The notes under the pieces are model-generated. The model was not told the origin of the DNA. It worked only from the letters and a program-made list of their open reading frames with translations, and ran no database searches. This document shows, piece by piece, positions 35,674 through 52,100 of a stretch of 64,000 bases of DNA. The position numbers and the translations under genes were made by a program. Where the stretch lies: assembly GCA_964553925.1 (NCBI GenBank), contig CAZKNR010000128.1, forward strand, positions 2,017 through 66,016, read 5' to 3'. How positions within the stretch are numbered: position 1 is the stretch's first letter; every line of letters begins with the position of its first letter. Origin of the DNA: an uncultured Acidobacteriota bacterium. GTDB lineage: Bacteria; Acidobacteriota; Vicinamibacteria; Marinacidobacterales; SMYC01.

Positions 35674-37830
35674 TTAGTAGCTCGACGATCTTGTGCCGCC
35701 GAGAGACGTGCCGAAGCTTCCGATGTTCGCGAGAGTGATCCCGAACCGAAACGTGTTCTCGTCGCGGAAGTTGCCGAAGTTGTACCGGTTGTAATCGAAG
35801 AGGAAACCGCAGCACTGCACGTCGTACTCGATCCCGGCGCGCATGTGCCGAAGGATCTTGAGCGACCAATCGTAGCTGGACTCGAAGTTCGCCCGGAGCC
35901 CCGAAGTCAGGTTCACCCGTCCTCCGAGGCGGAAGCTCGACCTCACGATGCCGCGGTCGGGGATGTTCCGCCGCGTCCAGACTCCCGAAACCGACCCCCA
36001 GTCTCCCGAGAAGCTCCCGGCGGTGCTGGCCGAGCGGACCGCCTTGAAGCTGATGTCGTAGTCGAGATTCCAGCTCGCGGTGAGCGATCGCGACGGACGA
36101 AAGTTCACCCGGGAAGTGATGGGTGAATAGCTGCTGGGGGTGCCATCGGCGGTGAAGTAGGGGGTCGAGAACTGCGCATCGTAGAGCGAGGCATTGACGT
36201 CGAAGAAGTATCTCTGCGAGACCACCCAGGTGAGCATTTCCGTCGGGTTGGCCTGCTCTTTGCCGTCGACCATCCGCTTCGCGAGGAATCGGTTCACGAT
36301 AGAAAAGGCCACCTGGTTCGTCCCGGGAATGTAGTCGTTGCCGTCGAATTTCGGTATGAGGTCGAAGTCCTCGATCCGGCTCCGGTAGCTCCAGACCATC
36401 TGCGGCTCGATGACGTGCTTGAAGCGCGCGGCGTAGCCGTTGTCGGGGGTGTTGAAGATCCGGGCGAACGTCGGACCCCTCATGTCGAACCCGGTCTCGA
36501 CGTACTGCCGAGCGATGGCCTCGTCCTCGACGAAGGCTCCCCTTGCGGTCTGCGAGGCGGTGTAGTGGGTATAGCGGCCGGTGACGCTGGTGCGAAACGT
36601 TAGATAGCTGAGGCCGGTGAAGGGATAGGAGACCGTGGGCGCTACGTCGAACCGCTGGTACTCGATGAGCTGGCTTCCGCTGGTCCTGGACAGGGACACG
36701 ACCTCGCTGTCGAAACCGAAGAGGATGGGGGTCGGCCCGATGCGCGTCGCTCGTCCGCCGAGACTTACCTGCGGCAAGACCTCCCGCACCGCGACGCTTT
36801 CCCCGAACGCGGTGTCGTTTCGATCGAAGAGGACGCGGAGGCTGTACTGGCCGAAGGATTTCGCGATCGTCCCCGAGGCGCGCTTCGATCTCTGGGTGGC
36901 GCGATCGTAGTTCTCCTGAAAGCTCTGCTGAAAATCGAAGCTCGAGAAGTAATCGACCCGCGCCACCGAGCGGAAACCCCCGGGCAGTTCCTGGTTCGCG
37001 GCGCCGAGGATGGTGTACTCGCGCGCTCCGGTCTCCGAATCGTTGAGGAAGAACGTATTCACCTGCCCGCGCGAGGCGTCGCTCGCGACGTAGCGATATT
37101 CGGCGGAGGCCGCGTTTCCCACCAGGGAGAAGCGCTCGTACGCGAGGGTCGCGTCCATGGAGCGGCTGATGGCCCAGAAGAACCCCTGGTCGAAAATGTA
37201 TCCCTTGAGGGAGGAGTGCCCGATCTGAGGAAGAAGCAGTCCCGTGGCGCGCCCTTGCTCGTCGATGGGGTAGTAGAGAAACGGTGCGTAAAAGATCGGG
37301 AGCGACTTGAGCTTAAAGAGGGTATGGTGAAGGGCCACGTGGTGGTCTCGTTTCATCCGGGCTTTCCCCGCGGTGAACTGCCACCGCGGAGTCGGCTGGG
37401 CGCAGGAGGTGAAAGCGCCGCCCTCGATCGCGTAGACGTCCTCGGACTCCTTCTCGATGATGTCGCCGTAGAAGTACAGATCCGCTCCGGCGCGGCCGTG
37501 GGCGTTGAAGAACCGGCCGGTCTTGGTGTTCAGGTCCGCTTCCATCCGGGTGGCGATGATCTTCTGGTCGCCCTGCTCGTAGACGACGTTGCCCTCGGCG
37601 ATTACCCGCATTTCCTCGTCCCAGAACTCGACCCGGTCGGCGGTGATATGGACGTCGCCGGAGCGGAGATCGACGTACCCTTCGGCTCTCGCATGACCCT
37701 TCGCGACCTGCTCCTGGCGTTCCGCTTTGAGAGTGACGTCCTGGGTTTCCTGACCGGGGCTCTGGGCGAAAGACGCTCTGGCGGTGAGGACGAGGAGGAG
37801 CGGGATGGGTGCAAGGGGACTCCTGAGCAT
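35674..37830 (-). CDS. lptD: LPS-assembly outer-membrane protein LptD (OstA family)
   Basis: Signal peptide MLRSPLAPIPLLLVLTARASFAQ. OstA-like N-domain (GYVDLRSGDVHITADRVEF...AEGNVVYEQGDQKIIATRMEADLNTKTG), then a large beta-barrel ending in an aromatic residue. Start moved to ATG 37830. Confidence 0.78.
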   Translation of the reverse strand: MLRSPLAPIPLLLVLTARASFAQSPGQETQDVTLKAERQEQVAKGHARAEGYVDLRSGDVHITADRVEFWDEEMRVIAEGNVVYEQGDQKIIATRMEADLNTKTGRFFNAHGRAGADLYFYGDIIEKESEDVYAIEGGAFTSCAQPTPRWQFTAGKARMKRDHHVALHHTLFKLKSLPIFYAPFLYYPIDEQGRATGLLLPQIGHSSLKGYIFDQGFFWAISRSMDATLAYERFSLVGNAASAEYRYVASDASRGQVNTFFLNDSETGAREYTILGAANQELPGGFRSVARVDYFSSFDFQQSFQENYDRATQRSKRASGTIAKSFGQYSLRVLFDRNDTAFGESVAVREVLPQVSLGGRATRIGPTPILFGFDSEVVSLSRTSGSQLIEYQRFDVAPTVSYPFTGLSYLTFRTSVTGRYTHYTASQTARGAFVEDEAIARQYVETGFDMRGPTFARIFNTPDNGYAARFKHVIEPQMVWSYRSRIEDFDLIPKFDGNDYIPGTNQVAFSIVNRFLAKRMVDGKEQANPTEMLTWVVSQRYFFDVNASLYDAQFSTPYFTADGTPSSYSPITSRVNFRPSRSLTASWNLDYDISFKAVRSASTAGSFSGDWGSVSGVWTRRNIPDRGIVRSSFRLGGRVNLTSGLRANFESSYDWSLKILRHMRAGIEYDVQCCGFLFDYNRYNFGNFRDENTFRFGITLANIGSFGTSLGGTRSSSY

Positions 37831-37840
37831 CGACGCCCGA

Positions 37841-37848
37841 ATTATACT
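37841..37848. promoter_or_regulatory. Palindromic -10-like core (ATTATACT / AGTATAAT) in the 27-bp lptD / radical SAM divergent spacer
   Basis: TATACT lies 9 nt before GTG 37858 on the + strand. TATAAT lies 10 nt before ATG 37830 on the - strand. No SD on either side. Confidence 0.35.
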
Positions 37849-37857
37849 AAACGCATC

Positions 37858-39234
37858 GTGAAGCGACGGCCGGTGCTCCTTTTGTCCTGCTACGAGCTTG
37901 GGCATCAGCCTCTGGGCCTCGCTCTGCCTCTGGCATTTCTGCGGAATGCCGGGCTCGAAGCGCGGGGCATCGACCTCGCCGTCGACCCCCTCGATGAGGA
38001 CGCCGTTCGGGGCGCTGACTTCATCGGGATCTCGGTCCCGATGCACACCGCCCTTCGGATCGCGCTCGGCCTCCTCCCGCGGCTCCGGGTTTTGAACCCG
38101 CGAGCCCACCTGTCGTTTTACGGCCTCTACGCCACCCTCAACGCCGAGCTCCTTCTGTCCTCGGGCGCGAGCTCCGTCCTGAGCGGCGAGCTCGAGGAGG
38201 AGCTGGTGGCGATCGCCCGGGGCGCCCGGGGAGCCGCGCCGGGGCCAAGGGCGCCCATTCTGAAGCGACTGAGCTTTCCCACCCCGGCCCGGAGCGGCCT
38301 TGCGTCCCTCGATCGATATGCCCGGCTCGAGATCGGCGACGAGACGCCAAAGCTAGTGGGCGCCGTCGAGACCACGAGGGGCTGTCTGCATCTCTGCCGG
38401 CATTGTCCCATCCCTCCGATTTATCAGGGACGGTTCTTCGTCATTCCGCAGGAGACCGTGCTCGCCGACGTGCGGCAACTGGTCGAGGCGGGCGCGAGCC
38501 ACATCGATTTCGCCGACCCCGACTTTCTGAACGGTCCGGGCCACGCGCTCTCGGTAGCGCGCGCCCTCCACGGCGAGTTTCCTCGCCTGAGCTTCAACTT
38601 CACGGCGAAGATCGAGCATCTCGTGAAACACCGCCGGCACCTCGGTGACCTCTCGGAGCTCGGCTGCCTTTTCGTGATCTCGGCCGTCGAGTCCCTGAGC
38701 GACCGGGTCCTTCGGGAGCTCGACAAGGGCCACGACCGCGAAACCGTATTCGAGGCCCACCAGGCGCTTCGTGAGGTCGGGATCGCCCTCAGGCCCACGT
38801 TCGTCCCCTTCACCCCCTGGACGACTCGCGAAGACTACGCGGATCTTTTTCACTGGATCGCGCGGGAGGGCCTCGTGGAGCACGTCGACGCCGTCCAGCT
38901 CACCCTGCGGCTTCTCATCCCTCCGGGCTCGCTTCTCCTCGAGAACGAGAGTCTAAAGTCGGTTCTGGGAGAGCTCGACCCTCGTGCCTTGACCTACCGA
39001 TGGACCCACCCCGATTCGGAGATGGACCGGCTCCAGGAGGCCGCCGTCACCGTGGTCGAGAAGGGGGTCGCCCGCGGCCGCTCGAACCACGCGATGTTTC
39101 ATGAGCTCGCGGAACTGGTGCTGGGGGAGCTCGTGGAAGCTTCTCCAATCCCCGCCCGCGCCCCCCGGCTCACCGAGGCCTGGTTCTGCTGAGCGGAGCC
39201 CCAAGGGGACCGGTTCGGTCCCCGGAGCGGGTAG
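37858..39234 (+). CDS. B12-binding-like/radical SAM protein with C-terminal C-U-A-E-P tail (probable selenoprotein; in-frame TGA at 39190-39192 read as Sec)
   Basis: (V)KRRPVLLLSCYELGHQPLG N-domain. CLHLCRHC radical SAM cluster. The ORF track stops at ...EAWFC-TGA, but the frame continues AEPQGDRFGPRSG to TAG 39232-39234 with a SECIS-like hairpin. Start set to GTG 37858; codons upstream are antisense to lptD. Confidence 0.7.
39205..39223 (+). promoter_or_regulatory. Putative bacterial SECIS hairpin
   Basis: GGGGACC-GGTTC-GGTCCCC: perfect 7-bp stem with a G/U-containing 5-nt loop. The stem starts 12 nt after the in-frame TGA, and 19 nt separate the TGA from the loop. Confidence 0.6.
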
Positions 39235-39244
39235 GCGAATACAG

Positions 39245-39250
39245 TATAAT
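39245..39250 (+). promoter_or_regulatory. Consensus TATAAT -10 box 6 nt upstream of the nfu ATG (possible leaderless transcript)
   Basis: cAGTATAATcgtggcATG; no SD between the box and the ATG. Confidence 0.35.
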
Positions 39251-39256
39251 CGTGGC

Positions 39257-39847
39257 ATGGAAGAAATTCGCATCACCGCCGAGCCCAAGGACAATTCGAA
39301 TTGCCGATTCGTCGTCGACCGTCCCCTGTACCCCGATGGTTCGGCGTTCTTCGGAAACAAAGAGCGCGCCGCGGGCTCCGGCCTCGCGGAGAAGCTCTTC
39401 GCCATCGAGGGCGTGTCTTCGGTCATGATCCAGGACAACCTCGTAACCGTGACCGCCGAGAGCGGTGGAAACTGGACGCCGATCGCGAAGCAGGTGGGAA
39501 CCACCATCCGCGCCGTCCTCGGGAGCGGAGAGAAAGCGGTCTCGGATACGGTCCTCTCCTCGATTCCGGATGCGGACTCGATCAAGAAGAGGGTCCAGAG
39601 CGTCCTCGATCAGGAGATCAACCCCGCGGTCGCGGCCCACGGGGGATGGGTGGAGCTCATCGACGTCAAGCGGAACGAGGTCTTCATCCGTATGGGCGGG
39701 GGTTGCCAGGGCTGCGGAATGGCGGATGTGACCCTGAAACAAGGCGTGGAAAAGTCGATTCGCCAGGCGATCCCAGAGGTCGGCGCCATCATGGACACCA
39801 CCGACCACGGGTCGGGCCGCAATCCCTACTACGCTCCCGCGAAGTAG
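39257..39847 (+). CDS. Two-domain Nfu/NifU-type Fe-S cluster scaffold/carrier
   Basis: N-terminal Nfu_N-like domain (ITAEPKDNSNCRFVVDRPLY...FAIEGVSSVMIQDNLVTV). C-terminal NifU domain (INPAVAAHGGWVELIDV...MGGGCQGCGMADVTLKQGVE). Confidence 0.85.
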   Translation: MEEIRITAEPKDNSNCRFVVDRPLYPDGSAFFGNKERAAGSGLAEKLFAIEGVSSVMIQDNLVTVTAESGGNWTPIAKQVGTTIRAVLGSGEKAVSDTVLSSIPDADSIKKRVQSVLDQEINPAVAAHGGWVELIDVKRNEVFIRMGGGCQGCGMADVTLKQGVEKSIRQAIPEVGAIMDTTDHGSGRNPYYAPAK

Positions 39848-39848
39848 C

Positions 39849-41096
39849 TCAAATAATTTCGAACGACAAAAGCGCGTGCGCCTCACGAAGCGCACGTTCG
39901 ACGCTTTCGGGGTCCGCGGCGCGCGCAAAGATGAACCCGAGGTAGCTCGATCCTTCGGGAAGCGGGACCAGGGTCTTCCCCGGATGCGCGGTGATGGTTA
40001 CCTCCTCGATCCCGGAGACCGCCCGGGCGTCCTCGAGCCCGCGCGTCCCCTCCAGCTTTCCGCCTTTCGGGATCGGGATCATCATCACCCCCGAGGATCC
40101 CGCCTCACGCGCGAGCTCCTCGACGTCCCGGCCCAGGGCGTGTCGAAGGAGGAGCTCTTCGAGCGAGACCCCGAGGCCGAAGCGCAGCGTCCGCGAGCAT
40201 AGCCCTCCGATGGAGCGCCCGGCGATCTCGATCATGACTGGCGCGGCCGGGGACTCGCCCCTCAAGCGAAGCTCGGCGTGAATCGGACCGTGGCGAAGCC
40301 CTATCGCCCGCGCGGCATCGGCGCTCACCCGGGCAATCTCCTTTTGGATCGCTTCCGGGAGCCGTGACGGCGTCACGTAGATCGTCTCCTCGAAGAACGG
40401 CCCTATCAAAGGATCGGGCTTGTCGAAGATCGCGAGAGGGCGGAGCCTTCCGTCCGTGAGAAGGCCTTCGAGAGCGACCTCGCGTCCGTCCACGTACTCC
40501 TCGATGAGCACCGAATCGCCTTCGTCGCCCCCGTGCGCTCGCATCTCCGGAGTCGCCAGGAATGCGGAGAGCCACTCGAATCTTCGAACGAAGCTCTCCC
40601 GGTCGTCCACCCGAACGACTCCGCGGCTGCCCGAGAGAAACACCGGTTTCAATACCAGCGGATAGGTGAGGCCGCGCGCGAGTAGACGCGGGTCATCACC
40701 GGTGCGAGCGAGGGTGAAGGACGGTTGGGGAACGCCGCCCGTGGCGAGGGCCTCGCGCATGCGGTGCTTGAGACGCGCCCTCGACGCGGCCTCGGGGGAG
40801 TTGTGGGGCAGGCCGAGCGCAGCGGCAACCGCCGCGGCGGCTACGCCTGTCTCTTCGTCCACCGGGACTACCGCGTCAAGGGGATATCGCGCGTGAAACT
40901 CCCGGGCGCGGGCGACGGCGCCCTCGAGCTCGAGAAAGTCGAGAGTGAGCAGGCCATCCGGCTGGAAGCTCTCGAGGGTGCTCGTCTCCTCCGACCCCAC
41001 GACCACTTCGATGCCGAGACTCTTGGCCGCGTCCAGGAAATCCCGCGTCCGATACGTGGACGTAGGCAACAGCAAGAGGACCCGCTCCCCGCTCAT
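39849..41096 (-). CDS. ATP-grasp domain enzyme (carboxylate-amine ligase type, specificity unknown)
   Basis: MSGERVLLLLPTSTYRTRDFLDAAKSLG, YPLVLKPVFLSGSRGVVRV, LIEEYVDGREVALEG, GPIHAELR, MIEIAGRSIGG. Start moved to ATG 41096. Confidence 0.75.
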   Translation of the reverse strand: MSGERVLLLLPTSTYRTRDFLDAAKSLGIEVVVGSEETSTLESFQPDGLLTLDFLELEGAVARAREFHARYPLDAVVPVDEETGVAAAAVAAALGLPHNSPEAASRARLKHRMREALATGGVPQPSFTLARTGDDPRLLARGLTYPLVLKPVFLSGSRGVVRVDDRESFVRRFEWLSAFLATPEMRAHGGDEGDSVLIEEYVDGREVALEGLLTDGRLRPLAIFDKPDPLIGPFFEETIYVTPSRLPEAIQKEIARVSADAARAIGLRHGPIHAELRLRGESPAAPVMIEIAGRSIGGLCSRTLRFGLGVSLEELLLRHALGRDVEELAREAGSSGVMMIPIPKGGKLEGTRGLEDARAVSGIEEVTITAHPGKTLVPLPEGSSYLGFIFARAADPESVERALREAHALLSFEII

Positions 41097-41446
41097 TAGC
41101 TGGACGTTAACACGGAATGAGCGTGTCGTTTCCAAGGATCGATAATTCAACAAAATGAAACTCGATTCAGAAATCGAAATCCGCCCGGGCGTCGTTCCAA
41201 GAACGCGAAGATCCATCCATGGCGCCGGATCCATTCCTCGCGCGCGACGATCGAGCTCGACCGCCGAAGTATGGAGAGTCATCGATTTGCTCGAGACCGC
41301 CTGAGCCGCGCGCCGTGGCACGTCGGTTGCAGTCTCGAATCGCAGGCGCGGAGCACCCGAGTCTCCGTTTCGATGAGGAGATTCAATAATCCAAATCGAC
41401 GGGTTCTCGGGCTCTCGCGTCTTCCGTGAAAGGAGATGCATTTCTC

Positions 41447-44338
41447 ATGAAGAAGAAACTCTTAGCTCTCGTTCCGATGGTGCTCCTCACCCTCGGCTCT
41501 CTCGCATCGGCCCAGACCGCGGGAGAGATCCAGGGTGTGGTGACCGACACGCAAGGCCTCACCATGCCCGGCGTCACGGTGACGCTTGGAGGAGAGGCGG
41601 TCCTCGGAGCGCAGATCGCCATCAGTCTCGAGGATGGATCGTTCCGCTTCCGCGGACTCCGGCGAGGGTCGTACAGCCTTCGCTTCGAGCTCCAGGGCTT
41701 CCAGACGCTGAACCGCGAGGGCGTCATCGTCGAAGGCAACCGTACCGTCACCCTGAACGTGGGCCTTCAGCTCGCGACGATCTCGGAAACGGTGACCGTC
41801 ACCGGCGAGTCGCCGGTGGTGGACGTCAAGAATACGTCCCTCAGCAACGAATTCGGGGCGACGGAGCTCTCCGACGTTCCGAGCGCGACCGACGTCTGGT
41901 CGGTCTTGAGCCAGACCCCCGGCGTTCGCATGCGCGGCTACGACGTGGGCGGAAGCCACAAGAGCCAGCAGATCGGCTACGAGAGCTTCGGCGTCCGCCG
42001 GCAGAACCGGGTCATTTCGGACGGCGTCGACTCGACCGAAGGGACCAGCGGCACCGGGTTCTATTACGACTACTACTCGATCGACGAGTTCACGACGTCC
42101 GCCGCGGGCGCCGACGTGGAGATGAACTCTCCCGGCTCACAGGTGGTAATGACGCTGAAGAGCGGGGGCAACGAGTTCTCCGGTCTCTACCACGCCGACT
42201 ACGAAGGAGAGAGCTTCGTCTCCGACAACCTCGACGACGACCTCAGGGCCCGAGGCTATACCGGAAACCCGAACCTCCTTTTCTGGGAGACCCACTTCGA
42301 TCTCGGCGGACCCATCGTCACCGATAAGGCGTGGTTCTACGGTTTCTACAACCATTTCCGGATCGACAAACAGATCTCGGGCGTCAACCCGGACGTGGCC
42401 ACCGATCTCGGGGACTTCGATCAGTTCGGAGGAAAGCTCACCCTGCAGCTCACGCAGAAAGACCAATTCATCGGCTACAGCCAGTGGGGCTTGAAAGAGA
42501 AGCCGCTTCGGGGCCTGTCGACCTTGATTCCGCCGGAGTCGATCCTCGCCCAGGCGAGCTGGTCGTGGGCCCACAAGGCCGAGTGGCAGAGGGTCTGGAA
42601 CGATCGCGCGTTCAGCAACGTTCAGGTCAAGTATTTCGGCTTCGGCTGGCCGATGGTGCCCGCCGTGGATCCCGGAAGCAACCCGCCGCGCATCGACAGT
42701 GCGACGTCGCTCCGGAGCGGCGCCGGTTGGAATAACACCAACCCTCCCTTCACCCTCGACCGATGGAAGCCGCAGGTCACGGCGACGATGAGCTACTACA
42801 TGCCCGACACCTCCAACTGGGCCGGGAGCCTCGACTGGAAGTTCGGCTTCGACTGGCAGATCGACTCCTCCCAGTACGGTTCGAACGGGAACTCGGGTCC
42901 CATCCGCTACTTCGACAACAGTCTCCTCGGCCGTCCACGTAACGTCGACGAGATCGCTCTTTTCAGCGTGCCCGCGGAAGGGCGCGTCGGGGCCGACAAC
43001 CGCGACAAGACGACGGCGTTCTTCGTGCAGGACACCTGGACGCTGAACGACCGGCTCACCATGAATCTCGGCTTCCGCTTCGGACGCCAGCAGGCGTACT
43101 ACCTGGACTCCGAGCTCACGCCGTTCTTCTCGGAGTTCTTTCCCACGGGGACCATCGAGGGGCAGACGCTCACCACGTGGAACAACTTCGCTCCCAGGCT
43201 CGGCGTCACGTACGACATCAGCGGCCGGGGCAAGACGATCGTCAAGGGTCACTACGGCCGCTATTACAACAACATCGCCGACACTCTATCGACGGGGAAT
43301 CCCGCAAACGTGGCCTGGGTCCGGCGCAAGTTTCTCGATCAGAACCAGAACGGACTCTATGACGGACCGGCGGAGCTTGGAGCCGTCGTCACTCAGGCGG
43401 GAACCGTGGGCTCGAGCCTCGCGGGAGCGAGGGGAACGGCCGTCAATCCCGATCTGAAACCCGCCTTCGCCGACGAGTTCAGCGGTTCGCTCGAGCACGA
43501 GATCTCGACCGACAGCTCGCTCCGGTTCTCCTACGTCCGCAAGCAGCAGCGAAACGACTACGGACAGTGGAACCGGGCGCAGCAGAACCCGCTGTTCGCG
43601 GGGCAGGGTATCCCCTGCGGCGACTCCGTCTTCCCCTGTCCCCTCGATCCTTTCACGGGCCAGCCGCTTCGCGTCCAGCGGGTTGCCTCTTCCGCGGCCA
43701 ACGTCCAGGATCAGGTGATCGATACCTTCCCCGGAAGCGACGCCAACTTCGACACCCTCCAGCTCGCGTACACCCGCCGCTTCGGCGACAACTTCTTCAT
43801 CCAGGGAAGCGGCGACTATCAGTGGCGCGACGAGCTGAGGCGCGCCGACGCCGAGGCCCAGGACCCGCTCACGGCCGATCCTCTCGACGTCGGCTGCGAC
43901 GTCGGCGGAGCCACCACCTGCTGGCAGAACCACAGCCTCGACGTCCCCTTCCGCCAGGAGAACACCAACTGGGGCGCGCGCCTGCTCGCCCGCTACGTGT
44001 TCCCGAAGGAAATCGGGCTGTCTGGCAACGTTCGCTATCAGAGCGGCTGGCCCTGGGCGCCGATCCATCGCGTCAACATCCCCGGCTCGGGAACGCTACC
44101 CATCTTCCTCGAGAACGTGGACCAGAACCGCTCTGAAGACGTGACCATCGTCGACCTCAGGGTAGAGAAGGGCTTCACCCTCGGCCCCGGCCGGCTCACG
44201 GGCATGCTGGACCTCTACAACCTCTTCAACAGCAACTCGGAGGTGAACTTCAACCTTCGAACGGGCACGAGATTCCGCAACATCATCGCCGCCCTCGACC
44301 CGCGCGCGTTCAAGATCGGGATTCGCTACCAGTTCTAG
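41447..44338 (+). CDS. Large outer-membrane beta-barrel, TonB-dependent-receptor-like with N-terminal CarboxypepD_reg domain (paralog 1)
   Basis: Signal peptide MKKKLLALVPMVLLTLGSLASAQ. GVVTDTQGLTMPGVTVTL...GSFRFRGL, VTVTGESPVVDV plug-like region, C-terminal ...FKIGIRYQF. AAAGGAGA SD. Confidence 0.85.
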   Translation: MKKKLLALVPMVLLTLGSLASAQTAGEIQGVVTDTQGLTMPGVTVTLGGEAVLGAQIAISLEDGSFRFRGLRRGSYSLRFELQGFQTLNREGVIVEGNRTVTLNVGLQLATISETVTVTGESPVVDVKNTSLSNEFGATELSDVPSATDVWSVLSQTPGVRMRGYDVGGSHKSQQIGYESFGVRRQNRVISDGVDSTEGTSGTGFYYDYYSIDEFTTSAAGADVEMNSPGSQVVMTLKSGGNEFSGLYHADYEGESFVSDNLDDDLRARGYTGNPNLLFWETHFDLGGPIVTDKAWFYGFYNHFRIDKQISGVNPDVATDLGDFDQFGGKLTLQLTQKDQFIGYSQWGLKEKPLRGLSTLIPPESILAQASWSWAHKAEWQRVWNDRAFSNVQVKYFGFGWPMVPAVDPGSNPPRIDSATSLRSGAGWNNTNPPFTLDRWKPQVTATMSYYMPDTSNWAGSLDWKFGFDWQIDSSQYGSNGNSGPIRYFDNSLLGRPRNVDEIALFSVPAEGRVGADNRDKTTAFFVQDTWTLNDRLTMNLGFRFGRQQAYYLDSELTPFFSEFFPTGTIEGQTLTTWNNFAPRLGVTYDISGRGKTIVKGHYGRYYNNIADTLSTGNPANVAWVRRKFLDQNQNGLYDGPAELGAVVTQAGTVGSSLAGARGTAVNPDLKPAFADEFSGSLEHEISTDSSLRFSYVRKQQRNDYGQWNRAQQNPLFAGQGIPCGDSVFPCPLDPFTGQPLRVQRVASSAANVQDQVIDTFPGSDANFDTLQLAYTRRFGDNFFIQGSGDYQWRDELRRADAEAQDPLTADPLDVGCDVGGATTCWQNHSLDVPFRQENTNWGARLLARYVFPKEIGLSGNVRYQSGWPWAPIHRVNIPGSGTLPIFLENVDQNRSEDVTIVDLRVEKGFTLGPGRLTGMLDLYNLFNSNSEVNFNLRTGTRFRNIIAALDPRAFKIGIRYQF

Positions 44339-49013: not shown

Positions 49014-51881
49014 TTAGAACTGGAAGCGAACGCCGAGCTTGAGGACGCGCGGATCCAGAGCGGCGATGATGTTGTTGAAGGTCCTCCCGGACGTGATGAA
49101 GAAGTTCGCCTCCGTGTTGGAGTTCATCACGTTGTAGACGTCGACGAGGCCGCTGAGCTTGTAGCCGCTACCGAAGGTAAAGCCCTTTTCCACGCGGATA
49201 TCGACGAGGGTGACCCTGTCGGAGTAGTTGTTGTTGATGTCCTCGAGGAAGACCGACTGGGTTCCCGAGCCGGGCACCGCGACCGGGTAGATGACCGCCC
49301 AGGGCCAGCCGCTCTGCATCCGCAGGTTCGCGGACAGAGCGATGTCCTTGGGCAGGACGTAGCGGCCGAGGAGACGGAAGTTCCAGTTCGAGCTGTCCTG
49401 GATGTTGTCGACCGACGGGTTGTGATTCTGCCAGAAGAGGACCGAGATCGGATCCGCGACGAGCGGGCTGGTGCTGACCGCCGCGGCCCGGCGGCGCTCG
49501 TTCCTCAACTGGTAGTCGAAGCTCGTCTGGACGAAGAAGTCCTCGGTGAACCGTCGCTGAAACGCGATCTGGAACGTGTCGTAGTTGTCGTCGTCGTACC
49601 CACCGGGGAACGTGTCGATGTTCGGCGCCTGCGCGTTGGCCGACGCATCCGGCACGCGCTCCAGACTGAGCGTCTGACCCGCGAACTGGCCGGGACAGCC
49701 GGTGCAGGTCGTGGTGAACGGAACTCCCCTCTCGAGAAGCGGGATCACCTGCGCGCGGTTCCAGGTGCCGAAGTCGTTCCGGAGCTGCTTTTTCACGTAA
49801 GAGAATCGCAGCGACGTGTCGGGCATGAGCTCATGCTCCACCGAGGCGCTGAACTCGTCGGCGTACGAAGGGGTCATGTTCGGGTTCACCGGGGTTCCCT
49901 GGGCGTTCGCAAGGCTCGATCCCACCGTGCCCGTCTGGCCGACTCGTGTCCCGAGCTCGCTGTCGCCGTCATAGAGCCCGTTCCGGTTCGGATCGAGGAA
50001 CTGGTAGGTCACGGTCGCGACACCCGCGGGGTTCCCGGTCGAAAGCCGGTCGGCGATGTTCTGGAAGTAGCGCCCGTAATGGCCTTTCAGGATGGTCTTT
50101 CCGGTTCCCGCGAGGTCATAGGTGACGCCTAGACGAGGAGCGAAGTTGTTCCAGGTGAGCAGATTCTGGCCCTCGATCGTCCCCGCGGGGAAGAACTGGG
50201 TGAGCTCCGGATTGAGCTCGGAGCTCTCGTAGGCGGCCGTTTGACGATGGAACCGGAATCCCAGGTTCAGCGTCATCCGGTCGTTCGGCGCCCAGGTGTC
50301 CTGAATGAAGAACGCGGTGTGGGTGTTGCGGTTGTCGTTCTGGTTCGCGCCGTCGGCTTTCACGTTGAAGAAGCGAATCTCGTTCACGTTGAACGGCCGT
50401 CCCAGGTTGCTGTTGTCCATGTAGCGGGTCGAGCCCGAGTTCGAGTTGAACCCGTACTGCGACGAGTCGATCTGCCAGTCAAAACCGATCTTCCAGTCAT
50501 GGCTTCCGCCCATGTTGGGCATGTAGTAGTTCGTGGTCGCCGTGACCTGGGGCTTCCAGCGGTCGAAGGTGAATGGCGGGCCGGCGGTGGGACCGACGTT
50601 CCATCCCGCGCCGCTCTGGCTGTTGTTCGAGATGTCGAACCGAGGCGGGTCGACGTCAGGATCGACCTTCGGCACCATGGGCCAGCCGAAGCCGAAGTGC
50701 TTGAGCTGGAAGTTCGTGAACATCCGGTCGCTCCAGACTCGCTGCCACTCGGCCTTGTGCACCCAGGACCAGCTGTCCTGCGAGAGCACCGCATCGGGCT
50801 CGATGGCCGCAGAGAGACCCCGGTTCGGCTTCTGCTTCAGGCCCCACTGGCTGTAGCCGATGAACTGGTCTTTTGGGGTGAGCTGGAACGTGACCTTGCC
50901 GCCGTAGCCGTAGAAGTTCCCGATGTCGGTCGCCACGTCGATCGGGACTCCGGAGATCGCCTTGTCGATCCGGAACCGGTTGAAGAAACCGTAAAACCAG
51001 GCCTTGTCCTTCACGATGGGACCGCCGGCATCGGCGTGGATCTCGTAGAAGATCAGGTTCGGGTTTCCGGTGTAACCGCGAGCCGCCGTCTCCTCGTCGA
51101 GGTTGTCGGCGACGAAGCTGTCGCCCTCGTAGTCCGCGTGAAACAGGCTGGAGAAGTCGTTACCCCCGCTCTTCATGGTCATCATGACGAAAGAGCCGGG
51201 CGCCGTCATCTCGACGTCGCCGCCGGCGGCCGTCGTCGTGAACTCCTCGACGGAGTAGTAGTCGTAGTAGAAGCCCGTTCCGCCGGTGCCCTCGGTCGAG
51301 TCGACGCCGTCGGAGAGGACACGGTTCTGGTTGCGAATGCCGAAGCTCTCGTAGCCCACCTGCTGGCTCTTGTGGCTTCCGCCGACGTCATAGCCCCGCA
51401 TACGCACGCCGGGGGTTTGGCTCAGCACCGCCCAGACGTCGGTCGCGCCCGGAACGTCCTGAAGCTGCGCGACCCCGAACTCGTTGCTGAGAGCGGTGTT
51501 GCGAACGTCGACGACGGGCGACTCACCGGTGACGGTGATCGTCTCGGCGACCGTCGCCACATCGAGCCCGGCGTCCACGGTGATGGTCCGCGTCCCGCCG
51601 ACGATGATGCCCTCGCGGTTCAGGGTTTGGAACCCCGCGAGCTCGAACATGAGATTGTACGATGCAGGCCGCAGCGCTCGGAACCGGTAGGTCCCGTCGT
51701 CCACGGTCACCGCCGTCTGCGCACCGAGAACGGCTTCACCGCTTAGAGTCACGCTGACGCCCGGGAGCACCAGCCCCTGCGCGTCCGTGACTTTCCCTTC
51801 GATCGCGCCAGTCGTCTGCGCGAAAGCCCCCGAAGCGAGGCCGAGCGCCACGACCGGCAGCACAAATAAGAGTCGACGCAT
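49014..51881 (-). CDS. Large outer-membrane beta-barrel, TonB-dependent-receptor-like with CarboxypepD_reg domain (paralog 2)
   Basis: MRRLLFVLPVVALGLASGAFAQ, GKVTDAQGLVLPGVSVTL, ITVTGESPVVDV, ends ...LKLGVRFQF. Collinear with 41447-44338 throughout. Start set to ATG 51881, 9 nt after AGGAGGA. Confidence 0.85.
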   Translation of the reverse strand: MRRLLFVLPVVALGLASGAFAQTTGAIEGKVTDAQGLVLPGVSVTLSGEAVLGAQTAVTVDDGTYRFRALRPASYNLMFELAGFQTLNREGIIVGGTRTITVDAGLDVATVAETITVTGESPVVDVRNTALSNEFGVAQLQDVPGATDVWAVLSQTPGVRMRGYDVGGSHKSQQVGYESFGIRNQNRVLSDGVDSTEGTGGTGFYYDYYSVEEFTTTAAGGDVEMTAPGSFVMMTMKSGGNDFSSLFHADYEGDSFVADNLDEETAARGYTGNPNLIFYEIHADAGGPIVKDKAWFYGFFNRFRIDKAISGVPIDVATDIGNFYGYGGKVTFQLTPKDQFIGYSQWGLKQKPNRGLSAAIEPDAVLSQDSWSWVHKAEWQRVWSDRMFTNFQLKHFGFGWPMVPKVDPDVDPPRFDISNNSQSGAGWNVGPTAGPPFTFDRWKPQVTATTNYYMPNMGGSHDWKIGFDWQIDSSQYGFNSNSGSTRYMDNSNLGRPFNVNEIRFFNVKADGANQNDNRNTHTAFFIQDTWAPNDRMTLNLGFRFHRQTAAYESSELNPELTQFFPAGTIEGQNLLTWNNFAPRLGVTYDLAGTGKTILKGHYGRYFQNIADRLSTGNPAGVATVTYQFLDPNRNGLYDGDSELGTRVGQTGTVGSSLANAQGTPVNPNMTPSYADEFSASVEHELMPDTSLRFSYVKKQLRNDFGTWNRAQVIPLLERGVPFTTTCTGCPGQFAGQTLSLERVPDASANAQAPNIDTFPGGYDDDNYDTFQIAFQRRFTEDFFVQTSFDYQLRNERRRAAAVSTSPLVADPISVLFWQNHNPSVDNIQDSSNWNFRLLGRYVLPKDIALSANLRMQSGWPWAVIYPVAVPGSGTQSVFLEDINNNYSDRVTLVDIRVEKGFTFGSGYKLSGLVDVYNVMNSNTEANFFITSGRTFNNIIAALDPRVLKLGVRFQF

Positions 51882-51964
51882 GATTTCCATTCCTCCTAAA
51901 TTCGTCCCTGAAAGACCGCCGTCAGGGGCGAAAGCGTTGGGCACCGGGACCGGCGGCGCTCTGG

Positions 51965-51994
51965 TATATAGCAAGCGATATGCCAGAGATTCAA
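51965..51994 (-). promoter_or_regulatory. Sigma70-like promoter (TTGAAT-N18-TATATA) upstream of OMP paralog 2
   Basis: Seen directly on the minus strand, about 85 nt upstream of ATG 51881. Confidence 0.35.
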
Positions 51995-52100
51995 AGGCGG
52001 GCCTCGAACTTAAGGCATTGAATAACCTGAAGTTGCACAGAGGCAAAAAAGGGGGGGCTTACGGGAATGATTCGGATATTCCGATCTCCGGATCCGTGAT

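Follow-up and report, generated by a model that had tools for sequence, protein, structure and literature searches.

Does the TGA codon at positions 39190-39192 of the present DNA stretch end the gene of a radical S-adenosylmethionine (SAM) protein, or is it read as selenocysteine (Sec) within a longer gene? The stretch, called the window below, is 64,000 nt long and comes from contig CAZKNR010000128.1 of an uncultured Acidobacteriota bacterium. The mechanical open reading frame (ORF) call stops at this TGA, directly after ...PRLTEAWFC. A first-pass annotation, made from the sequence alone, had proposed that the frame continues through the TGA into a tail beginning with A-E-P and closes at TAG 39232-39234, and that a hairpin of the bacterial Sec insertion sequence (SECIS) type lies within this tail. 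An alignment of orthologs, a search of the extended protein against hidden Markov models and a covariance model of the hairpin were suggested there as checks, and non-coding variation past the TGA in close relatives was named as a finding that would speak against the proposal. Our comparison of related loci argues, with a probability of about 0.9, that the gene decodes the TGA as Sec by means of a conserved hairpin: UGA 39190-39192 would be read as Sec in translation, and the hairpin at 39205-39223 would serve SelB and Sec-tRNA(Sec) as the SECIS element. The protein then very probably ends in ...W-F-C-U-A-E-P-Q-G-D-R-F-G-P-R-S-G, and the ORF called as far as ...WFC is a truncation artefact. 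On the positions of the TGA, the tail and the TAG, the sequence agrees with the first-pass annotation at every coordinate.

For the comparison, 160 related loci from at least 10 phyla were used, 80 from species-representative genomes and 80 from metagenomes. The codon at the Sec position is TGA in 138 of them, TGC in 15 and TGT in 6, and removal of identical contexts left 126 TGA and 21 Cys contexts. The Cys just before this position is invariant in the family. After it, an A-E-P-T-x-x-Q tail is conserved; of 148 distinct contexts, 137 have AEP directly behind the Sec/Cys codon, and 10 of the others have SEP or TEP. The Ala and Glu codons of the tail vary at the wobble position only, and in the Pro codon the first two positions are invariant and the third takes all four bases (entropy 1.83 bits). 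No in-frame stop occurs within 10 codons after the TGA in any of the 126 TGA contexts, compared with 30 and 8 in the other two frames. Synonymous changes separate the tail Ala and Pro codons of the window from those of its four nearest relatives, whose proteins are 81-86% identical. Since wobble-only variation, an open frame and a retained AEP together form the pattern of a translated region, the DNA after the TGA behaves, by comparison of these sequences, as translated and not as untranslated spacer. The alignment of orthologs thus has TGC or TGT at exactly the Sec codon with AEP kept downstream and the same tail in the TGA forms, and the search for non-coding variation returned neither frameshifts nor in-frame stops, only changes at third positions. 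Among the best 120 database homologs, most end exactly at ...WFC and a minority run on as ...WFCCAEPT..Q..; we take the former ending to be the signature of gene callers halting at a Sec codon. In the closest relatives (L081:4548-4590, L082:7308-7350 and L001:1432-1474), the tail is closed by a second TGA, 12 codons after the Sec-TGA, and the same codon presumably means Sec and stop within 40 nt there, told apart only by the position of the SECIS element.

The hairpin described by the first-pass annotation, a perfect 7-bp GGGGACC/GGTCCCC stem with a GGTTC loop, is present as claimed: it begins 12 nt after the TGA, its loop lies 19 nt from the UGA, and the first two loop positions are G. ViennaRNA draws it with 8 bp and a GUU loop; the folding energy of the hairpin alone is -14.8 kcal/mol. 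Published constraints on bacterial SECIS elements (Zhang and Gladyshev, summarised in PMC13188914) ask for a stem of 4-16 bp and a loop of 3-9 nt with G in its first two positions, at a UGA-loop distance of 16-37 nt and with a minimum free energy of -7.5 kcal/mol or lower; the window hairpin lies within all of them. At the family position, 112 of the 126 TGA contexts have a hairpin within all these limits, but only 1 of the 22 Cys contexts does (p = 3e-15, Fisher's exact test). Its place in the TGA loci is fixed, with the 5' arm at nt 16-22 counted from the U of UGA, and across the family it has a stem of 6-7 bp and a loop of AGUU, AGUUN or, in the clade of the window, GGUUC, starting 19-20 nt after the UGA.

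The stem also covaries. In a register-aware count over the 126 TGA contexts, stem positions 1-5 are paired in 98-100% and position 6 in 90%, with compensatory exchanges along the stem (CG/UA 104/19; GC/AU 94/27 and 108/14; AU/GC/CG 72/26/6). In a single-register alignment of 64 loci, from which the window and its close relatives were left out, 93% of cells pair, compared with 24-59% in controls that shift the partner by 1-3 columns; double-sided changes occupy 76 cells against 21 ± 3 in shuffles, and the observed covariation score was reached by none of 500 shuffles. These two procedures replaced RNAalifold on the ungapped alignment of 126 sequences, which recovered only 4 pairs, because two loop registers, of 4 and 5 nt, occur in the family. 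A covariance model trained on the 64 loci without the window has a single match in the whole 64 kb, at 39190-39227 (31.8 bits, E = 4e-9), and the next one, at 8.7 bits, is the reverse strand of the same palindrome. From position, covariation and restriction to TGA forms, we judge it highly probable that the hairpin is the bacterial SECIS element belonging to this UGA, as the first-pass annotation had supposed from its loop and its distance to the TGA. The family element departs from the bacterial SECIS consensus in lying inside the coding tail, where it doubles as codons for the conserved peptide G/D-Q/R-F/L-G-P. The sole exception among the Cys forms is a TGT locus of Thermogemmatispora carboxidivorans (L066:11375-11430), which retains an 8-bp SECIS-like hairpin at the family position and looks like a recent Sec-to-Cys replacement. 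Both Thermogemmatispora tails (L066 and L067) are longer and have extra CC pairs (...SCCGSS...SGCCSVGH).

When the 458-residue product was scored with the Sec position replaced by Cys, it matched NCBIfam NF040546, "CUAEP/CCAEP-tail radical SAM (seleno)protein", with 617.3 bits (E = 1.6e-185) over a curated cutoff of 500. The alignment joins protein residues 6-453 to profile positions 1-466 of 468 and extends past the Sec site, and the family motif C-[U/C]-A-E-P after a conserved PRLTExWF stretch is present as ...PRLTEAWFC-U-AEP.... By profile score and motif, the gene at 37858-39234 is a genuine NF040546 member, and the family name given in the first-pass annotation proves to be a real one. 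Domain layout and the C-U-A-E-P string are the same as in NF040546, with nothing essential different; the window has Q-G-D-R after AEP, where T-x-x-Q is the commoner form, and a GGUUC loop, where AGUU(N) is commoner, and both traits are common to its closest relatives. The nearest database proteins come from metagenome bins of Vicinamibacteria (Acidobacteriota) and are up to 87% identical; one protein of a Vicinamibacteria metagenome-assembled genome, 87% identical, already bears the NF040546 name at NCBI. A scan of species-representative genomes gave 569 confirmed stretches, with hosts in Acidobacteriota, Methylomirabilota, Planctomycetota, Gemmatimonadota, Chloroflexota and others, phyla of soil, groundwater and marine habitats. 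In one record labelled Nitrosotalea sp., an archaeal bin (L043), the tail and SECIS are almost the same as in a Dormiibacterota locus (L040), and the archaeal assignment is probably a binning error rather than a sign of an archaeal family member. That the function of the family is not known, as the first-pass annotation also held, accords with Haft and Gwadz (bioRxiv 10.1101/2022.07.06.499078), who name the family as uncharacterized in what was the sole paper on it in the literature searched.

Several observations weigh against Sec decoding. ARAGORN detected no tRNA gene in the 64-kb window, hence no tRNA-Sec, and tblastn with E. coli queries (E <= 1e-5) found no match to SelA, SelB or SelD there, in accord with the earlier statement that selA, selB, selC and selD are all missing from the window. 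The local fold taken alone is unremarkable for a stretch of 74% G+C (z-score only -1.49, 21 of 200 shuffles being as good), so the significance of the hairpin must come from related sequences. No SECIS or other credible Rfam family was found in the whole window at gathering thresholds or in a permissive scan of 39100-39300, which is expected because bacterial SECIS elements are family-specific. The missing machinery and the modest z-score, together with the location of the hairpin between the called stop and the next gene, would suit a TGA that is a real stop, with a hairpin that terminates transcription, stabilises the mRNA or regulates the nfu-type gene downstream, and with conservation due to RNA structure only. 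However, the hairpin is not among the terminators listed by the scan and lacks a T-run behind it, and on the latter ground its reading as an intrinsic terminator was rejected. The stretch of 12 nt that separates TGA and hairpin keeps its Ala-Glu-Pro-Thr codons and varies at wobble positions, Cys-type orthologs translate through the same position into the same peptide, the frame stays open for 10 codons in all TGA contexts, and the hairpin has gone from the Cys forms, whereas a terminator or regulator should have persisted in them. We consider a true stop extremely improbable.

The same lack of selA, selB, selD and tRNA-Sec from the window could also mean that the lineage has lost Sec decoding and that the gene is a fossil, whose protein ends at ...WFC and works or decays without the tail. 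Against this, the window has a perfect hairpin (7-8 bp, GGUUC loop) and an open tail frame, and the arrangement is kept in the 81-86% identical relatives with synonymous differences. Lineages that gave up Sec carry TGC or TGT at this codon, not TGA. By analogy with ArsL, the radical SAM enzyme discussed below, which makes no product without its Cys tail, a tail-less enzyme would probably be inactive. A fossil gene is in our view a highly improbable explanation, and active decoding of the TGA as Sec is the reading adopted in the following.

Features of the gene and its two neighbours are collected in Table 1. The B12-binding-like N-terminal domain and the CLHLCRHC cluster, both pointed out in the first-pass annotation, were recovered by Pfam and by the motif itself. 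The Pfam score of the former is barely over its cutoff. The three Cys residues of the cluster motif are all invariant among 79 family members.

Table 1. Coordinates of the radical SAM gene, its predicted Sec-related elements and its neighbours in the window
Feature	Position	Strand	Basis or remark
Predicted full selenoprotein gene, CUAEP-tail radical SAM	37858..39234	+	GTG start to TAG stop; 458 codons including Sec
B12-binding-like (Rossmann-type) N-terminal domain, residues 7-119	37876..38214	+	Pfam PF02310, 33.3 bits against cutoff 32.1
Radical SAM core domain, residues 170-331	38365..38850	+	Pfam PF04055, 50.3 bits
CLHLCRHC, CxxxCxxC motif for [4Fe-4S] cluster (C176, C180, C183)	38383..38406	+	Read from sequence
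Predicted Cys-Sec dyad, TGC (Cys443) then TGA (Sec444)	39187..39192	+	TGA = 39190-39192, after ...PRLTEAWFC
Predicted coding tail beyond Sec, AEPQGDRFGPRSG	39193..39231	+	In-frame A-E-P-Q-G-D-R-F-G-P-R-S-G
Bacterial SECIS-type hairpin	39205..39223	+	GGGGACC 39205-39211, loop GGTTC (GGUUC) 39212-39216, GGTCCCC 39217-39223
Probable true stop codon TAG	39232..39234	+	Read from sequence and translation
Nfu-type Fe-S carrier gene (Nfu_N + NifU)	39257..39847	+	Pfam PF08712, PF01106; NCBIfam NfuA-like C-terminal half
L-amino-acid-ligase-type (LAL) ATP-grasp gene	39849..41096	-	Pfam ATP-grasp_4, LAL_C2, ATPgrasp_N; convergent with the Nfu gene

At its 5' side, a mechanical ORF (37216-39192) overruns the real GTG start by about 214 codons, a shadow effect of high G+C content. 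A large minus-strand ORF at 35674-37831, LptD-like by eye only, begins at 37831, 26 nt from the GTG of the radical SAM gene, and the two form a divergent pair with almost no intergenic space. Farther downstream, two long paralogous ORFs, 41426-44338 (+, 970 aa) and 49014-52046 (-, 1010 aa), have very similar N-terminal regions, with the stretches …GVVTDTQGLTMPGVTVTLGGEAVLGAQ… and …GKVTDAQGLVLPGVSVTLSGEAVLGAQ…, respectively, and may be duplicated outer-membrane proteins.

The Nfu gene starts 22 nt after the TAG stop of the radical SAM gene. The best relative of the LAL protein in the Protein Data Bank (PDB) is BL00235 (3vot, E = 1.6e-37), an enzyme that makes Met-Gly and Met-Met. Conservation of this company was counted by tblastn with defined neighbour proteins at 80 loci having at least 2.5 kb on both sides. 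Nfu lies near the radical SAM gene (within about 4 kb) in 47 of the 80 loci, LAL in 46, both in 41 and a DUF169 gene in 13. LAL is placed upstream in Blastocatellia, downstream in Methylomirabilota and Nitrospirota, and convergently in Vicinamibacteria and Thermogemmatispora. Since the genes are kept together though rearranged in order and strand, these placements point to a functional link among Nfu, LAL and the radical SAM gene. In ORF clustering of the neighbourhoods (159 loci), the only recurrent neighbours were Nfu, LAL, DUF169 and a major-facilitator (MFS) transporter; this clustering was polluted by long shadow ORFs in high-G+C DNA and was replaced by the tblastn counts.

Other genes recur beside particular members of the family. 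A DUF169 (COG2043) gene, absent from the window, stands beside the radical SAM gene in 28 loci (e.g., L080:3154-3861 and L064:6891-7598), most often as the next gene downstream, the hosts being Planctomycetota, Nitrospirota and some others. An ATG22-like transporter of the MFS type follows the Nfu gene at L004:12165-13481 (-) and in six other Blastocatellia-type loci, and could be an exporter of a small-molecule product. In four Blastocatellia-type loci (L007, L106, L110 and L117), a selD (selenophosphate synthetase) gene lies about 3 kb from the radical SAM gene on its upstream side and on the strand opposite to the ligase gene; in L007, the radical SAM protein is the Cys (TGC) form. The selD gene is partial at contig ends in L016 and L094 and lies at about 10 kb in L041.

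A lead to the function is given by the second-best NCBIfam match of the window protein, ArsL (NF040542), a radical SAM protein of arsinothricin biosynthesis and the closest family with a characterised function; the match covers profile positions 1-416 of 423 with 290.2 bits. The next family reaches 45 bits, and no other radical SAM family exceeds this value. Because ArsL is so far ahead of all the others, NF040546 is, by profile comparison, a sister family of ArsL. ArsL is a non-canonical radical SAM enzyme that cleaves SAM into methylthioadenosine and a 3-amino-3-carboxypropyl (ACP) radical, which is added to arsenite; the arsenite is held by three cysteines of a C-terminal RCCLKC tail, and deletion of the tail leaves SAM cleavage intact and abolishes product formation. 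The two proteins have in common a B12-like N-domain and a CxxxCxxC core, followed by a variable linker and a short tail at the C-terminus in which Cys residues are vicinal. They differ in that the window tail, C-U-A-E-P, has no third Cys and lacks the RCCLKC (CCxxC) motif, and in that the family is spread very widely across phyla, whereas arsQML genes occur mostly in Proteobacteria. Judged by sequence, the window protein is not ArsL, as score, tail motif and gene context all fail. Haft and Gwadz (bioRxiv 10.1101/2022.07.06.499078) described CU motifs as rare and found for the most part in proteins handling heavy metals or organometallics.

The structure of the family was approached through an AlphaFold model of a Cys-type homolog, P0085, which is 54% identical to the window protein; the mean pLDDT is 94.6, with about 70-90 in the tail region. 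A search of the PDB by sequence found no structure of ArsL or of the family. With Foldseek, the closest solved folds are AprD4 (the best match), TsrM, OxsB, MgmA and MiaB, and for the first four E ranges from 3e-20 to 1e-16, with TM about 0.6-0.7 and 15-18% identity. These four have an N-terminal domain of the cobalamin-binding type, as the window protein appears to have, but all of them lack a C-terminal Cys-Sec or Cys-Cys tail and catalyse dehydration or methylation, reactions unrelated to that of ArsL.

From the kinship to ArsL and the neighbouring genes, a tentative mechanism can be drawn. Reductive cleavage of SAM at the [4Fe-4S] cluster would give an ACP radical, as in ArsL; the radical would join a soft heteroatom such as As, Se or S, which the vicinal Cys-Sec pair of the flexible tail would hold; and the product would be a gamma-substituted 2-aminobutyrate, i.e., a methionine-like amino acid. 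The neighbouring L-amino-acid ligase would couple this product with another amino acid, and Nfu would deliver the Fe-S cluster or repair it. We regard this scheme, which extends the chemistry of ArsL by analogy, as possible and rather doubtful, and a number of observations weigh against it. The ArsL score stays under the cutoff of that family, 450 bits; the tails of the two families cannot be aligned, and the dyad provides two soft ligands against the three cysteines of ArsL. No arsenic gene, arsM, arsQ and arsR included, was recurrent in the ORF clustering of the 159 loci, in which arsM was not searched by name. The closest solved folds do other chemistry, and none of Nfu, LAL and DUF169 is present in 25 of the 80 loci. 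In the literature searched (CUAEP/CCAEP, DUF169, ACP radical with selenium), no functional study of the family was found.

There is about an even chance that the selenoprotein has chemistry of another kind. It may be a conventional 5'-deoxyadenosyl-radical enzyme, possibly cobalamin-dependent, in which the Cys-Sec pair is not a substrate holder and is instead a redox-active selenenylsulfide, a hydrogen-atom donor or a ligand of an auxiliary metal. A B12-binding-like domain joined to a radical SAM core fits this, as do the nearest folds, among which are a diol dehydratase (AprD4), cobalamin enzymes (TsrM, OxsB and MgmA) and MiaB, and so does the subthreshold ArsL score. In mammalian thioredoxin reductase, a C-terminal vicinal Cys-Sec pair serves as the redox centre. 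On the other hand, ArsL is by far the nearest family and has the same layout of core, variable linker and short Cys-rich tail, CU motifs are associated mainly with heavy metals or organometallics, and a conserved amino-acid ligase neighbour suits an amino-acid product.

The selenoprotein claim is correct and is already known at the level of the family, the gene being a further instance of the curated NF040546, which the NCBI pipeline would name automatically. At the sequence level, the gene has every mark of a bacterial selenoprotein gene. For annotation, 14 codons should be added to it, with a selenoprotein label. In the literature searched, we did not find described the quantitative family-wide consensus of the covarying SECIS, the kinship to ArsL as a lead to the function, or the conserved Nfu-LAL neighbourhood (with or without DUF169, MFS and selD). 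Kinship to ArsL, a covarying SECIS element and the company of Nfu and LAL together lead to a concrete and testable hypothesis for an orphan selenoenzyme. At its widest, and as a speculation by analogy that we hold to be unlikely, the CUAEP radical SAM protein, Nfu and LAL, sometimes with DUF169, an ATG22-like exporter or selD, would constitute a widespread undescribed three-gene pathway, in which an ArsL-type ACP radical is transferred onto a heteroatom, possibly Se, S or a non-arsenic metalloid, held by the Cys-Sec pair and the resulting new methionine-like amino acid is built into a dipeptide. If this is true, the family would provide the first carbon-heteroatom bond-forming radical SAM enzyme that presents its substrate by selenocysteine.

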